Source: Chromatiales bacterium (GTDB lineage Bacteria > Pseudomonadota > Gammaproteobacteria > Steroidobacterales > BM003). From it: a DNA stretch of 61,591 nt. The position numbers and the translations under genes are program-made. Below the pieces are notes generated by a model. The model was given only the letters and a program-made list of their open reading frames with translations. It did no database searches and had not been told where the DNA came from. Numbering within the stretch: position 1 is the first letter of the stretch; every line of letters begins with the position of its first letter. Below, piece after piece: positions 5,377 to 48,736 of the stretch. Location of the stretch: contig PKUM01000054.1 of the NCBI GenBank assembly GCA_002868855.1, positions 1-61,591 on the forward strand, given 5' to 3'.

Positions 5377-7053
5377 ATGAGCCGTTTTCGTATTTTGTTC
5401 CTGGTCCCGGCATTTCTGTTTGCAGCGGCGCTCGGCGCCACCAATGCCGACCTCATTCTCGAGAACGGCACGATTCATACCGTCGACCCCGATGTGGCAT
5501 TGGTCGAGGCGGTGGCGATCGCCGATGGCAGGATCATCGCACTCGGCAGCAAGACCGCCGTCGACAAATTTCGCACCACGCAGACCCAGGTAATCGATCT
5601 CGACGGACGTTTCGCCATGCCCGGATTCAACGATGCCCATGTGCATCTGGGCAATGCCGCATTGAGGATGCTGAACGTCGACCTGTCCGAAACGACTTCG
5701 CTCGAAGAACTGAAAACGCGCCTCGCCGCAGAGGTGCCAAAGCGGAAACCCGGCCAGTGGATCTATGGCCGCGGCTGGGACGAGAGCAAGTGGGCAGGGG
5801 GGCGCGTTCCGACCCGCGACGATCTCGACGCCGTGACGACCATCCACGCACTGTTCCTGGAACGCGCCGACGGCCACTCCGCGGTGTTGAACTCACTGGC
5901 GCTGCAACGTGCCGCGATCGATCGCGACACTCCCGACCCGGCCGGTGGCGTGATCGATCGCGACGCGACCGGCCGCGCGACCGGCTGGCTCAAGGAGAAG
6001 GCTGCCGACCAGGCATTCGGACTGATTCCCGAACCCACGCGCGGCCAGTGGCGCGACGGGTTTCTGCGCGCGATGCATCACGCGCTTGAAAACGGAGTGA
6101 CGTCGGTACAGGACGACACACTGCGCAGTCCCGGCCAGGGCAAAACCGCGGTGTCCGTGCTGCAGGAGCTGCACGCCGAACAGGCGCTGCCGATCCGTAT
6201 CACCGTGTGGCTGCCGTTCGAGGCGCCGCTCGAAGAGCTGGAGAAATGGCGCAAGGAACTCGGCACCAGCGACCGTTGGCTCAAAGCGGGCTTGCTGAAG
6301 ACCAACATCGATGGCTCGGGCGGGTCGTTGTCAGCTGCAATGCTGGAACCTTACTCCAGCGCGCCGGACAACAAGGGACTGTTACTGCTCGATCCCGATA
6401 CCGTGACAGATATGGTCATCGCGCGCGATGCCGCCGGATTCCAAATCGGAATCCATGCTATCGGCGACCGCGCCAACCGCGTTGTACTCGATGCTTTCGA
6501 CAGCGCGATTCGCAGCAATGGCCGGCGTGATTCGCGGCACCGTATCGAACACGCGCAATTCGTCAATGGCGCCGACCTGGAACGGTTTCGTTCTCTCGGA
6601 GTCATTGCATCGGTGCAGCCGAGCCACTTGCTGACCGACCTGCGCTGGGCACCATCGCTGCTCGGCGCGCAACGCGAAGCCGACGCCTACCGCTGGAAGA
6701 GCTTTGTCGACTCCGGCGCTCACCTGTGTTTCGGCACCGACTATCCGGTCGAGCCGATCGGCCCGATGCGCGGGCTTTACGCGGCGATCACCCGCGAGTT
6801 CGAATCGGGCGGTCCCCCCGGCGGCTGGCACCCGGATGAATCGCTGGACATGCGCGCGGCGATTGCCGCCTACACGCTTGAACCTGCCTTCGCGGAATTC
6901 GAGGAAACGCGTAAAGGCACGCTTACCGTGGGCAAACTTGCAGACATCGTCGTGCTTGCCCGGGACGTTACCAGGCTGGCGCCGGAAGATGTGTTGCAGA
7001 CCCGCGTGGATATCACAATCGTCGAGGGTCGGGTCGCTTACCGGCGCCATTGA
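5377..7053 (+). CDS. Secreted amidohydrolase family protein (YtcJ-like, Amidohydro_3)
   Basis: ATG at 5377. Signal peptide MSRFRILFLVPAFLFAAALGA. Metal motif NDAHVHLG, with later HAIGD and IEHAQ motifs. Confidence 0.8.
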   Translation: MSRFRILFLVPAFLFAAALGATNADLILENGTIHTVDPDVALVEAVAIADGRIIALGSKTAVDKFRTTQTQVIDLDGRFAMPGFNDAHVHLGNAALRMLNVDLSETTSLEELKTRLAAEVPKRKPGQWIYGRGWDESKWAGGRVPTRDDLDAVTTIHALFLERADGHSAVLNSLALQRAAIDRDTPDPAGGVIDRDATGRATGWLKEKAADQAFGLIPEPTRGQWRDGFLRAMHHALENGVTSVQDDTLRSPGQGKTAVSVLQELHAEQALPIRITVWLPFEAPLEELEKWRKELGTSDRWLKAGLLKTNIDGSGGSLSAAMLEPYSSAPDNKGLLLLDPDTVTDMVIARDAAGFQIGIHAIGDRANRVVLDAFDSAIRSNGRRDSRHRIEHAQFVNGADLERFRSLGVIASVQPSHLLTDLRWAPSLLGAQREADAYRWKSFVDSGAHLCFGTDYPVEPIGPMRGLYAAITREFESGGPPGGWHPDESLDMRAAIAAYTLEPAFAEFEETRKGTLTVGKLADIVVLARDVTRLAPEDVLQTRVDITIVEGRVAYRRH

Positions 7054-45210: not shown

Positions 45211-45723
45211 TCAGCGGGCGTTCTTCAGCTTTTCGAAGGCGGCAATAAAGGCGAGCGCGTCCTCCTCACGGAATGTCTCGAGCGCCATGTCGCCGTCCAC
45301 TGACACCTCGCTGAACGAGATAAAACCCTCGCCCTCGACGTCGATAACGATCTCGCCGTCCTGCCAGTTCATCGCATTTATCGCATCGAGCGGGTAAATC
45401 AGCTGCTGATTCAACATTTTCTCGACACTGTCGAGGACGAAAGTCTTGAAGTCGGCGGCCAGGCCAGTTTCGTCTCCGGATTCACGTTCGTCCTCGAACT
45501 CCGACTCGATTTCCTCGAGCTTCTGATCCGACAGTTTCATCGCCAGACTTTCCTCGCTCAGCACGAGGTCAATCTCGCCGGTTCGATTGGTAATGACCAT
45601 CACCGTCTCGGCGTCGGACCAGTCGGTCTTCGCCTCTTCCTTCTTCTTGCTGCATGCAGCCGTCGAAAAACCGGCCACGGCCACGGCCACTATCAGCGAA
45701 TTCACCAAAGCAGTTCGTTTCAC
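45211..45723 (-). CDS. Acidic lipoprotein (hypothetical)
   Basis: GTG at 45723 inside track ORF 45211..45969. (M)KRTALVNSLIVAVAVAGFSTAACS lipobox, and an E/D-rich mature part. Confidence 0.55.
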   Translation of the reverse strand: MKRTALVNSLIVAVAVAGFSTAACSKKKEEAKTDWSDAETVMVITNRTGEIDLVLSEESLAMKLSDQKLEEIESEFEDERESGDETGLAADFKTFVLDSVEKMLNQQLIYPLDAINAMNWQDGEIVIDVEGEGFISFSEVSVDGDMALETFREEDALAFIAAFEKLKNAR

Positions 45724-45787
45724 GGCATTCCCCAGGCATTTTTGACTCCGGCGAAGCCCAAGCACGCGATACCGCGCCGGACAGGTG

Positions 45788-45817
45788 CTGTTTCCCTGCA
45801 CGCATGCAGGGAAACAG
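45788..45817. repeat. Perfect 13-bp inverted repeat (hairpin) with a 4-nt loop
   Basis: CTGTTTCCCTGCA-cgca-TGCAGGGAAACAG, 65-95 nt upstream of the lipoprotein start. No U-tract on either strand. Confidence 0.7.
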
Positions 45818-46084
45818 GGCTGCATGTATACCATGCAACCGGCGCCGCTCGCAGCCCCCTTGCGACCCGACCGTGATTGGAGCAGCCGGGCGATTGAGCG
45901 CGACCGTGGCTCTTCCGTGTGCCGATGGCCTGCGATCTCGAAACAGGGATTCAGAGCGAACCAAAGCATTCGGGCCGGAACAATCTCCCACTTTCGACCC
46001 GCCAGTGGTTCAACTGGCAGCGGACAACCAGTGACCGGGGAGCCCGCCTACGTAAACCTCGACGGCACGGCGAGACGCGTGAGA

Positions 46085-46273
46085 GACATTCCGGGAAAAT
46101 ACGGATTGACCCGGATGGCCGTTGCACGGATGGTATGCATAGTCTTTGGGGGATCATGCCCGCGATGCGGGGTGGGGTATTCCAGATGTGACACTCACCA
46201 CGGAGAAGTGAAGACACGAACCAAAAGCAAAAACGTACTTGCCTAATGCCCCCGCCACGGCGGGGTTTCTTTT
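46085..46273 (+). ncRNA. Candidate Csr/Rsm-type (CsrA-sequestering) small RNA; the 5' end is undefined
   Basis: Six GGA motifs lie within about 110 nt (46094, 46103, 46113, 46128, 46151, 46202), mostly as ACGGA/CGGAT. Three can sit in 8-9-nt loops closed by 4-bp stems. An A-rich stretch at 46216-46240 is followed by an intrinsic terminator. No convincing ORF is present. Confidence 0.4.
46249..46273 (+). terminator. Rho-independent terminator (plus strand)
   Basis: CCCCGC-cacg-GCGGGG is followed by TTTCTTTT. The U-tract is only on the plus strand, although the nearest protein genes on both sides are on the minus strand. Confidence 0.7.
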
Positions 46274-46296
46274 GCCCCAAATTTATTTCGCCTTTT

Positions 46297-47808
46297 TCAT
46301 TCTCCCGCGGGCCGGCCGCCACTTTCGAAGAACCGCAACAGGCTTACCATCGCAAGCGTATCGAACCGGCAATAGTCCCTCAGTTGCTGTTCGAGACGGG
46401 CGCGTTCTTCGTTTGTCGTCTCCGCCGAAATAGCGCAGAGATAGGCATCCGCCGCCGCCGCGCCATCCCGAATTCCCTCGAGCTCCGCGTAATCGAGGTC
46501 CGGTGCGATTGCCGGCAGCACCGACTTTATCGACCAGGATCCGAGCATGTCCGGGTGATAGTAGTGATTCCGCGTTACCGGCAGCAGATCCTGAAGCCTG
46601 GCGGCGATGGCCGCGAGCGCTTCAGCCAGGTCCGGGAAGCGGTTCTGGAGTATGCCGATCACACGCCGCTCATAGCTCGAATAGGTCAGAATCGGACCCG
46701 TCTGCCGCAACGTCCGTATCAGCGCCTCCGCCAGCGCGCGAAGCGGCGGATGTAGCGAGAGCTCGAGAAACTCCTCGTGCGTGAACTCGCCCGGGGCCTG
46801 CTCGATATGGCAGGAATACTGCACCGGCAATGTTTCGTAGGGCCTGGTACCCGGCCAGACCGGCACCGCTGGCGAAATGGTCTCGAAGTCGAGAAAAAAT
46901 CGAGGGTATGCAAGGCCACGGGCAAACGTCACCGCAGCCTCGTCGAGCCGCGCGGCGCCGCGACAGGTTGCCGCCCGGATTCGTTGCTGTGCGGCACCCG
47001 CAAGCCGTGCGGCCGGAACATCGCGGATATCGCGATAGCCGTCGTTGACCAGCGCCGCAATCTTCGCCTTGCTGCCACCGAGACCGGTAACCGGGTAGCG
47101 GGCCCCGGCCGACCAGCAGGACTGCTTGAACGGGCACGCATGAGGCTTGTCGCATTGGGCGCCGACGGCGACCTCCGGCTCGCCACCGTCAAGCGTGGCC
47201 AGCGCGTCGCGGATCCACCCCGGCACCTGGTGATCCAGCGCCGCGACGCTGTCCCCGACATCGCACTCCACCAGCAAGCCGTTGTAATCGTCGTTACCGC
47301 GGTATTCAAACCGGTGATCGACATGCGCCAGCGACACGCTGACTGGTGCGAGCCCTGCGCCCGACATCACCCAGTTCTGTATCGCGCAATCGATCGCATG
47401 TTCGTCCTTGAGCGCGGTCGACGCCTTGACTTCCACCAGGCGATAGCTGCCGCGCAGCGGCACCAGCACATCGGCACGTATCAGCACCCCGCCGTACTCG
47501 AACGCCGCTTCGAACAGCGGCCCGCAAGCGCCGCCCTCGAGGATCTCAGTGGTTGCCGCCAGTGCCGCCGCGGTATCCGTTCCGGTATCGATCAGAACTC
47601 CATCCGATCCACCATAGATACGACGCGCAACCGCCCCCACCGAGTTACCAGCGGAGAAAGCCGCCGCGGTAGCGGCACTCGTTGCGGCCAGTTCCGGGCG
47701 AAAGGTCTCGAGCCACAACCGGCGCGGGCACTGCAAATGGGACAGCAATCGTGTTTTCGATAGCCGGCGTACCGGATTACCCGCACCGGTCAATCGGTTT
47801 TCGCCCAT
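46297..47808 (-). CDS. DUF2779-like protein: Cas4-like PD-(D/E)XK nuclease fused to a DEDD-type exonuclease-like domain
   Basis: LSKTRLLSHLQCPRRLWLE, RLVEVKAS (ExK) and the Cys cluster CDKPHACPFKQSC. The C-terminal half has FFLDFETI and later H/D motifs. Confidence 0.7.
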   Translation of the reverse strand: MGENRLTGAGNPVRRLSKTRLLSHLQCPRRLWLETFRPELAATSAATAAAFSAGNSVGAVARRIYGGSDGVLIDTGTDTAAALAATTEILEGGACGPLFEAAFEYGGVLIRADVLVPLRGSYRLVEVKASTALKDEHAIDCAIQNWVMSGAGLAPVSVSLAHVDHRFEYRGNDDYNGLLVECDVGDSVAALDHQVPGWIRDALATLDGGEPEVAVGAQCDKPHACPFKQSCWSAGARYPVTGLGGSKAKIAALVNDGYRDIRDVPAARLAGAAQQRIRAATCRGAARLDEAAVTFARGLAYPRFFLDFETISPAVPVWPGTRPYETLPVQYSCHIEQAPGEFTHEEFLELSLHPPLRALAEALIRTLRQTGPILTYSSYERRVIGILQNRFPDLAEALAAIAARLQDLLPVTRNHYYHPDMLGSWSIKSVLPAIAPDLDYAELEGIRDGAAAADAYLCAISAETTNEERARLEQQLRDYCRFDTLAMVSLLRFFESGGRPAGE

Positions 47809-48319
47809 CCTCGCTGAATCCCCGCTTAGTTCTCAGACGAATAATAGGGCATCGCAAGCTCAGCGCCTGAGCCCGGGCCGCCGCGATGCAACCATTTGCC
47901 GAGCGCCGGCATCATACACGGTAACAAACGCTGCCACGCGGTCCGGAAAACAACCCGACGCCGTGTCGCTGCAACGTATGAAAAGGGTCTAAAAAGCGCG
48001 CTCAGTCGCGTCAAGGGAACGAAAGTCGTTATGTTATGTACAAAAATTCGCTATCCGCTCGGGGTTCGGCTTATGCGGGTCCGCCAGCGCGCAATCGAGC
48101 AATCGGTCGATGACAACGGGCTGCGCCCGGTCGTTCCGTTAAAACTCCATCGCAGCGGCTGGCTGCGGCGGCTGGCCCGCCGCGGCTAGCGCTCCCGTCG
48201 GCCCGCCTGCCGTCACTTCTCAATTCACGTCGAAACCTTCGTTCGTCTGGCCGGTCATAACGAAAACGGCCGCGATTCCCGTGGCTATAATGACCGCAAC
48301 ACAAGCGGGGAAGACACCG

Positions 48320-48736
48320 ATGCGAAACACTCTGGCCATCATCATTTTTCTGACCTTGCTCCCGGGCGCCCAGATCGTGGCCCAGGAGAGCAAGACCGGA
48401 CCCAGTTCCCTGAAGATGCGTGGCGGGATGAGCAACCCCGCAACCAAGGGCGCCTCGCAGGACATGCAAAAACTCGTTGCGCTTTGCGCCCGCGATCCCG
48501 AATCCCAATTATTCGATCGGGAGTGGGCGAAGTATCTTCAGGAGTATTACCGTGACGGGATGAATGTGGACGGTCTGATAGAGGACGTTATCCAGCGCGC
48601 GGACGACTACCGCATGAACAGTCACCAGGCCAGCGGCAATCTCACGATGAGCGCGGCGGAAAAACGATCGATACGCCGTAACATGAAATCGACAGCGCAG
48701 ACGGTGGTCGGTAAAAAGAAAGATCCGGCCGGCTAG
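48320..48736 (+). CDS. Secreted hypothetical protein
   Basis: ATG at 48320 (MRNTLAIIIFLTLLPGAQIVAQE). TATAAT at 48284-48289 lies upstream. Confidence 0.55.
   Translation: MRNTLAIIIFLTLLPGAQIVAQESKTGPSSLKMRGGMSNPATKGASQDMQKLVALCARDPESQLFDREWAKYLQEYYRDGMNVDGLIEDVIQRADDYRMNSHQASGNLTMSAAEKRSIRRNMKSTAQTVVGKKKDPAG

Follow-up and report, generated by a model that had tools for sequence, protein, structure and literature searches.

Does the long gap between two minus-strand genes of an uncultured gammaproteobacterium hold an RNA gene of its own, and, if so, of what kind? The window analyzed here is the whole of contig PKUM01000054.1 (61,591 nt; contig C127), one of the 337 contigs of the 3.6 Mb metagenome-assembled genome (MAG) G000, which is assigned to a Chromatiales bacterium; the DNA runs carrying its sequence are soil and sediment metagenomes. 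The gap is bounded by a lipoprotein gene without a Pfam family (minus strand, start at 45723) and by a DUF2779 gene (minus strand, stop at 46297; Pfam PF11074, E = 2e-36). A first-pass annotation, made from the DNA letters, had read positions 46085-46273 as a small RNA (sRNA) of the Csr/Rsm sponge type that is closed by an intrinsic terminator. Our analysis points strongly to a stand-alone plus-strand sRNA gene of ~240 nt, does not bear out its assignment to the Csr/Rsm families, and tentatively favors a partnership with Hfq.

A conserved non-coding element ending at an intrinsic terminator

Only two close relatives are present in the genome collection, the same-genus MAGs G001 and G002, both from uncultured Gammaproteobacteria. 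In both, a BLAST search with 3.6 kb around the site gives a single collinear block that takes in a cardiolipin-synthase-like gene, the lipoprotein gene and all of the gap. The block ends at 46284 in G002 and at 46277 in G001, a few bases past the U-tract of the terminator, with unrelated sequence beyond. Within the gap, positions 45860-45975 are poorly conserved, ~45980-46280 are ~80% identical and 46085-46273 are ~91% identical; the sRNA region is 76-80% identical in G001 and G002. Pattern scans of genome contigs returned G001 and G002 only, and scans of JGI metagenome contigs with the conserved block at 46186-46218 recovered four loci, L021-L024. L021 and L024 are almost identical to the window and L023 resembles G002, while L022 is clearly more divergent (119 bits with a custom covariance model), has ~80% of the sRNA region conserved and keeps the order of lipoprotein gene, element and DUF2779 gene.

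The terminator consists of the stem-loop CCCCGC-CACG-GCGGGG at 46250-46265 on the plus strand, followed by the tail TTTCTTTT at 46266-46273. Over the whole feature (46250-46273), the tail is also written UUUCUUUU; the stem comprises six GC base pairs and the U-run is broken by one C. A terminator scan recovered it on the plus strand with exactly the sequence given in the first-pass annotation. The stem and the U-tract are invariant in all homologues, and the loop becomes UCCG in L022.

The absence of a convincing protein gene, also part of that annotation, stands as well. The gap is not protein-coding because its frames are broken by 1-nt indels, which the relatives carry at four places within 46085-46273 so that no frame is kept, and because none of the open reading frames (ORFs) in the gap has a Pfam match (153 aa on the plus strand, including 45785-46246; 126 aa on the plus strand; 123 aa on the minus strand). 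Similar-looking long ORFs of G002 and the window share their ends only, the middle being read in different frames. A small peptide of 12 aa (GTG 46207 to TAA) was considered and ruled out, since a 1-nt indel shifts its frame in G001 and L022.

Transcription of the element and its strand

A contig at the sRNA locus is found in 11 metatranscriptome runs, which come from sediment, estuary, river and marine samples. In seven of them the contig lies wholly inside the element (46037-46244, 46039-46221, 46052-46241, 46058-46249, 46058-46255, 46077-46244 and 46100-46241). The 5'-most contig ends are at 46037 and 46039 and the 3' ends cluster at 46241-46255, bracketing a unit of ~220-250 nt that stops at the terminator; these ends are approximate only, as Logan contigs are directionless and are interrupted at strain polymorphisms.

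Ten runs were compared over 1.2-4 kb of flank on each side, and runs X29, X31 and X32 over 45960-46300 only. In the ten flank-covering runs, the contigs at the sRNA locus are the deepest within 1-4 kb. The lipoprotein gene is without a contig in nine of the ten, and so is the DUF2779 gene save for its last 50-120 nt, which are covered only in runs whose contig crosses the terminator. The contig of the element is the sole one in four flank-covering runs, and two more add only one at 47962-48332; run X25 has thin coverage throughout and is uninformative. Exact-match contigs of the same organism's transfer-messenger RNA (tmRNA) in the same runs are 100-500x deeper, which places the sRNA at ~0.2-1% of tmRNA depth; therefore, the sRNA is moderately abundant and not dominant.

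We strongly infer that the sRNA lies on the plus strand. The hairpin and the following T-tract are invariant on this strand in all lineages with a varying loop, and on the minus strand no U-run follows any hairpin. The structure conservation index, with the terminator left out, is 0.48 in the forward versus 0.38 in the reverse direction. A divergent homologue's contig from run X24 has plus-strand sequence followed by the read-2 adapter at its end, and for the minus-strand tmRNA of the same run the read-2 adapter stands on the sense side; with one observation each, the adapter orientation suggests the plus strand of the sRNA.

The predicted transcript, based on conservation and on the metatranscriptome contigs, spans 46030-46273 on the plus strand, its 5' end lying between ~46022 and ~46037 and its 3' end coinciding with the U-tract of the terminator. 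A weak candidate -10 element, TCAACT at 46010-46015 on the plus strand (TAAACT, TAGACT or TAAACA in the relatives), comes from the alignment only and would place the start near 46022. Sigma-54, sigma-E and sigma-70 readings of the conserved upstream blocks were also tried, and none fits all homologues.

Because the sequence is conserved with frame-breaking indels, the conservation stops just past the terminator and discrete contigs within 46037-46255 occur in the 11 runs, a genuine independent plus-strand RNA gene at 46030-46273 is very probable. In this respect, the earlier proposal of a stand-alone plus-strand sRNA that ends at the 46273 terminator is well supported.

A putative Hfq site at the 3' end

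An (ARN)4 tract, a putative site for the distal face of Hfq, lies at 46223-46234 on the plus strand, ~15 nt 5' of the terminator stem. In the alignment it reads AAA AGC AAA AAC in the window, AAA AAT AGC AAA AAA in G002 and L023, AAC AAC AGC AAT AAC in G001 and AAC AAC AGC AAC AAC in L022, that is, it is present in every lineage, as (ARN)5 in the relatives and as (ARN)4 in the window. Of the nine substitutions within the tract, eight change the N position (binomial P ~0.001, post hoc), with the strain variant 46234 C>T among those counted. Codon wobble is ruled out as the cause of this bias, since the changes would be non-synonymous, with Lys in place of Asn, and the frame is itself displaced by an upstream 1-nt indel.

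On its distal face, Hfq recognizes RNA in units of A-R-N (PMC9037510; PMC8121710), and class II sRNAs bind Hfq via a U-rich 3' end together with (ARN)n motifs (PMC9037510). Judged from the aligned sequences, the substitution pattern of the tract is probably that of an Hfq distal-face site. The genome encodes hfq, and residues 1-68 of the product are 87% identical to E. coli Hfq (tblastn). Residues 21-44 contain one difference (I44 to V); by our reading of the alignment, the two proteins agree at Y25, I30 and K31 of the distal face.

A comparable arrangement occurs on the minus strand of contig C242 of G000 (reverse-complement 5626-5695), where an ARN-rich tract, AAGAAAAACAACAAC, stands upstream of CCCCGC-TAGC-GCGGGG-TTTTTTTT. 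This site may be a further Hfq-type sRNA or the 3' end of an mRNA.

Conserved blocks and predicted structure

The most conserved block of the element, GGUGACACUCACCA-NN-GAGAAGUGA-N-GACAC at 46186-46218 on the plus strand, is invariant but for four positions in five sequences. No other nearly invariant block is as long, and two mutually exclusive small hairpins fit within it; it is a candidate seed or protein-contact region and the prime candidate for a functional part that is single-stranded or switches its fold. Hairpin H1 at 46090-46115 (plus strand), with the stem UCCGGG/CCCGGA around AAU-ACGG-AUU and the invariant ACGGAUUGAC, also given as AAUACGGAUUGAC, is predicted for all homologues. 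Of its cells, 88.9% are paired, and G001 has a single compensatory change and a single mismatch.

The conserved CYGG-GGAGY-CCRS element at 46035-46047 on the plus strand can form a small hairpin with GGAG in the loop (90% paired), or it can serve as the 5' strand of a long-range helix that joins 46035-46046 to 46102-46114. In the helix, 94.5% of the cells of its 11 pairs are paired; G001 shows one compensatory G-C to C-G change and one mismatch there. H1 would compete with the long-range helix, and the four lineages are compatible with either the local hairpin or the helix. The hairpin CCCGC-GAU-GCGGG at 46159-46171 (plus strand) keeps its stem in all homologues, and in L022 its loop is enlarged to 8 nt. 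The elements with local support are the hairpins at 46090-46115 and 46159-46171 and the terminator.

GGA triplets and the Csr/Rsm assignment

The assignment to the Csr/Rsm sponges was built on six GGA triplets within ~110 nt. Their positions on the plus strand are confirmed as 46094, 46103, 46113, 46128, 46151 and 46202 (range 46094-46204), and the contexts tACGGAtt, cCCGGAtgg, cACGGAtgg and cACGGAga are all present; two further GGA lie upstream at 46022 and 46039. The three stems proposed around them, TCCG/CGGA at 46090-46105, TGCA/TGCA at 46123-46139 and TCAC/GTGA at 46195-46211, exist in the window. The TGCA/TGCA stem, however, is not kept in G001 or G002, and the TCCG/CGGA stem is better seen as part of the longer hairpin at 46090-46115.

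Genome-wide, at least six GGA are found in 3.7% of 164-nt windows and in 0.6% of 113-nt windows, a window size that was chosen post hoc. Dinucleotide-preserving shuffles of the region contain 5.55 +/- 1.5 GGA versus the 6 observed (P = 0.5), and 1.5 ANGGA versus 3 observed (P = 0.18). Since its count equals the shuffle expectation, the cluster, though real, is accounted for by a local composition rich in G and A. The GGA-dense windows of the genome are nearly all coding, and the sole clearly intergenic one, on C192, resembles a small ORF.

The GGA motifs are not preferentially kept in the relatives. The triplets at 46103, the sole one of the six, and at 46039 upstream are invariant across the four lineages (two of eight, or 25%, versus 18.7% of all triplets), but of the seven GGAs within the transcript, five are each missing from one lineage or more. 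The site that looks best, CACGGAUG at 46125-46132, reads AGAGAAG in G002 and L023, and 46128 G>C in strains of 95-99% identity removes its GGA. Partition-function folding places only the GGAs at 46039 and 46103 in loops in most homologues, with variable results for the rest; in the alternative long-range helix, both sites are paired.

A cmscan search of 45650-46400 with all 4227 Rfam families returned no CsrB, CsrC, RsmX, RsmY or PrrB_RsmZ at E<=10, and RF00166 run over the whole genome gave sub-threshold matches only, located elsewhere. More generally, nothing relevant was found in Rfam at the gathering threshold in the window or at E<=10 in 45650-46400, the best match being Hrs1 (E = 0.94), which is on the minus strand, is driven by the terminator and was discarded. 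The best site for a GacA/UvrY box (TGTAAG-N6-CTTACA) within 400 bp (45700-46100) has mismatches at 5 of 12 positions. The 18-bp 6-N6-6 palindrome at 46001-46018 was rejected as an upstream activating sequence, since its half-sites differ from those of the GacA/UvrY box and it is not kept in G001 or L022. With no Rfam match, a GGA count at the shuffle level, conservation at background, few consistent loops and no GacA box, the Csr/Rsm sponge assignment is not upheld.

The best GacA-box-like site of the genome is the palindrome AGTAAGGAAGACCTTACA at C152:34132, with one mismatch to TGTAAG-N6-CTTACA. The stretch around it (C152:34083-34230), which is the GGA-rich leader of a lipoprotein gene, is no clear sponge.

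Favored explanation and competing readings

The reading that we favor, and hold tentatively, is an Hfq-associated, class-II-like, trans-acting riboregulator made from an independent plus-strand sRNA gene; it is the most likely one because the 3' module matches the grip of class II sRNAs on Hfq. The gene would be transcribed from ~46030 to 46273 and end at the intrinsic terminator, giving an RNA whose 3' module consists of the (ARN)4-5 tract, a ~15-nt spacer, the GC hairpin and the U-tail. The ARN repeats would bind Hfq's distal face, the U-tail its proximal face, and an invariant, partly single-stranded block (46094-46110 or 46186-46218) would pair with target mRNAs. Several observations weigh against this reading. 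The folding energy of the whole RNA is no better than that of shuffles (z = -0.19), covariation over the four lineages is not significant, and a short-word BLAST of the sRNA against the genome for targets gives only 12-15-nt matches with chance E-values. The sigma-70 promoter scan of the region is empty, and no promoter was identified. Such a tract stands within 45 nt upstream of 4 of the 299 terminator-like sites in the genome, where ~2 are expected; the co-occurrence is not enriched, and the Hfq argument is therefore carried by the substitution pattern, which was recognized post hoc over four lineages only. Furthermore, a single ARN tract could equally serve another factor that binds A-rich RNA. 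The metatranscriptome adds two more points, as its contigs are directionless and those of four runs start at 46118-46143 and cross the terminator to 46300-46417, 30-145 nt past it and inside the DUF2779 gene.

These last two points also speak for an element that acts in cis or on the other strand, be it a stable fragment of the 3' untranslated region of the minus-strand DUF2779 mRNA, a long 5' leader belonging to the lipoprotein gene or an sRNA that, by reading through, is antisense to the 3' end of DUF2779, and DUF2779 is indeed next to the element in the window, L021 and the divergent L022. Such a role is nonetheless distinctly improbable, given that G001, G002 and L023 keep the element and its terminator without an adjoining DUF2779, that the minus strand lacks a U-tract after any hairpin and has the lower structure conservation index, that a leader would need more than 300-550 nt, that seven contigs stop at 46221-46255, at or at most ~30 nt before the terminator stem, and that the adapter orientation favors the plus strand. 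A Csr/Rsm-type sponge that titrates CsrA from mRNAs via several GGAs, perhaps besides binding Hfq, is unlikely, even though the genome encodes csrA (PF02599, 89 bits, C88:2273-2428; product 80% identical to E. coli CsrA) and crude genome scans give no better sponge candidate. The homologues hold 6-8 GGA per ~265 nt (5-6 in G002 and L023, terminator and beyond excluded), the genome mean being 3.2 per 219 nt; the invariant GGGGAG (46039) and ACGGAUU (46103) can occupy small hairpin loops in most homologues, and CACGGAUG at 46125-46132 may be a near match to a preferred RsmE/CsrA site. RsmW binds RsmA with only three of its seven GGAs in loops and without a nearby GacA box (PMC4950607), and for this reason the scarcity of looped GGAs and the missing box only weaken the sponge reading. 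It is opposed by the empty Rfam search at E<=10, by a GGA count of 6 versus 5.55 in shuffles and conservation of 25% versus 19% for other triplets, by the loss of five of the seven transcript GGAs in some lineage and of 46128 in close strains, and by the pairing of the invariant ACGGA in the better-conserved long-range helix. With ~1 GGA per 27-36 nt, the element is probably no denser in this motif than the sparsest of the known sponges, or sparser still. As the genome encodes CsrA, its binding by the sRNA is conceivable, with nothing specific to indicate it. Most improbable of all is a CrcZ-like decoy that sequesters Hfq by A-rich repeats without pairing to mRNAs: the tract AACAACAGCAAYAAC of G001 and L022 does resemble the ARN-rich Hfq-binding repeats of CrcZ (PMC9037510, PMC8121710). 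A depth of at most ~1% of tmRNA is, however, a poor fit to stoichiometric titration of Hfq. The element also has a single tract, where CrcZ has several.

Distribution and significance of the sRNA family

Covariance model R1, run over 301 same-order genomes, found the three same-genus genomes only, the other 298 being at noise level, and in the sister genus g2 a GNAT gene occupies the syntenic site and the element is absent there. Because both the covariance search and the synteny of the sister genus came up empty, the sRNA family appears confined to one genus of uncultured sediment and soil Gammaproteobacteria and the more divergent L022 lineage. As a family it is new and narrow in its distribution; its kind is well known.

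Characterized bacterial sRNAs come almost all from cultured model organisms. The present one belongs to an environmental gammaproteobacterium that is not in culture, and three independent lines of evidence support it, namely conservation with frame-breaking indels, the conserved terminator and the contigs of 11 runs. It illustrates that, where the sequence is rich in G and A, a cluster of GGA triplets does not by itself predict a Csr sponge well, and that position-specific substitution patterns, such as the ARN periodicity, can indicate the likely protein partner. The practical value is modest, as the result is one more orphan sRNA family.

Neighboring features

In the window, the near-identical L021 and the divergent L022, the sRNA terminator is directly followed by the DUF2779 gene (46297-47808). 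G001, G002 and L023 lack the gene at this place, the similarity stopping 4-11 bp past the U-tract. On comparison of these sequences, the presence or absence of DUF2779 appears to mark a gene loss or gain at the boundary of the sRNA.

A second long intergenic stretch, 47962-48332, lies between DUF2779 and a secreted-protein gene that starts at 48320. Both G001 and G002 conserve this stretch, which shows up there as a spurious 'KIRYPLG...' ORF, and nowhere else in 8 kb, the sRNA locus aside, do runs X24 and X28 have contigs. Rfam gives no match to it at E<=1; it could be another sRNA or a long 5' leader.

On the lipoprotein side of the gap, a perfect palindrome, TGCATG-TATAC-CATGCA at 45821-45837, is located ~100 nt upstream of the lipoprotein start. 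It is part of a 25-nt block that is identical or one base off in the window, G001, G002 and L023, in much less conserved surroundings, and it is absent from L022. It has the look of an operator or a promoter element for the lipoprotein gene. Close by, at 45788-45817, a perfect 13-bp hairpin is species-specific, and the counterparts in G001 and G002 do not form a hairpin.

Comparison with known systems

ChiX, MgrR and CyaR, the class II Hfq sRNAs of Enterobacteria, are two to three times shorter than the ~240-nt sRNA described here. Like them, the present sRNA has a stand-alone gene, an intrinsic terminator with a U-tail and an (ARN)n motif upstream of it (PMC9037510), and the organism has an Hfq whose core is 87% identical to that of E. 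coli, its binding to the sRNA being putative. It has no sequence or Rfam relationship to them.

With the Csr/Rsm RNAs, such as CsrB, CsrC, RsmX, RsmY, RsmZ and RsmW, it shares an intergenic location, a terminator, several GGA of which a few can occupy hairpin loops, and a genome that encodes CsrA; with RsmW, it also shares the lack of a nearby GacA box (PMC4950607). In contrast to these RNAs, it has no covariance-model match, its GGA number and conservation are at background, and the loops proposed for it are not conserved.

McaS of E. coli is an sRNA of ~95 nt that binds both Hfq and CsrA. The sRNA of the window has no homology to McaS but resembles it in combining Hfq-type features with few GGA sites, binding being putative here. 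To our knowledge, a dual binder of the McaS type is the only known kind that would reconcile the Hfq and the Csr readings. There is a slim chance that the element is the founding member of a new sRNA family that binds Hfq via the ARN tract and U-tail and CsrA via the two invariant GGA hairpins; if so, it would link the Hfq and Csr networks as McaS does, with an unrelated and larger architecture.

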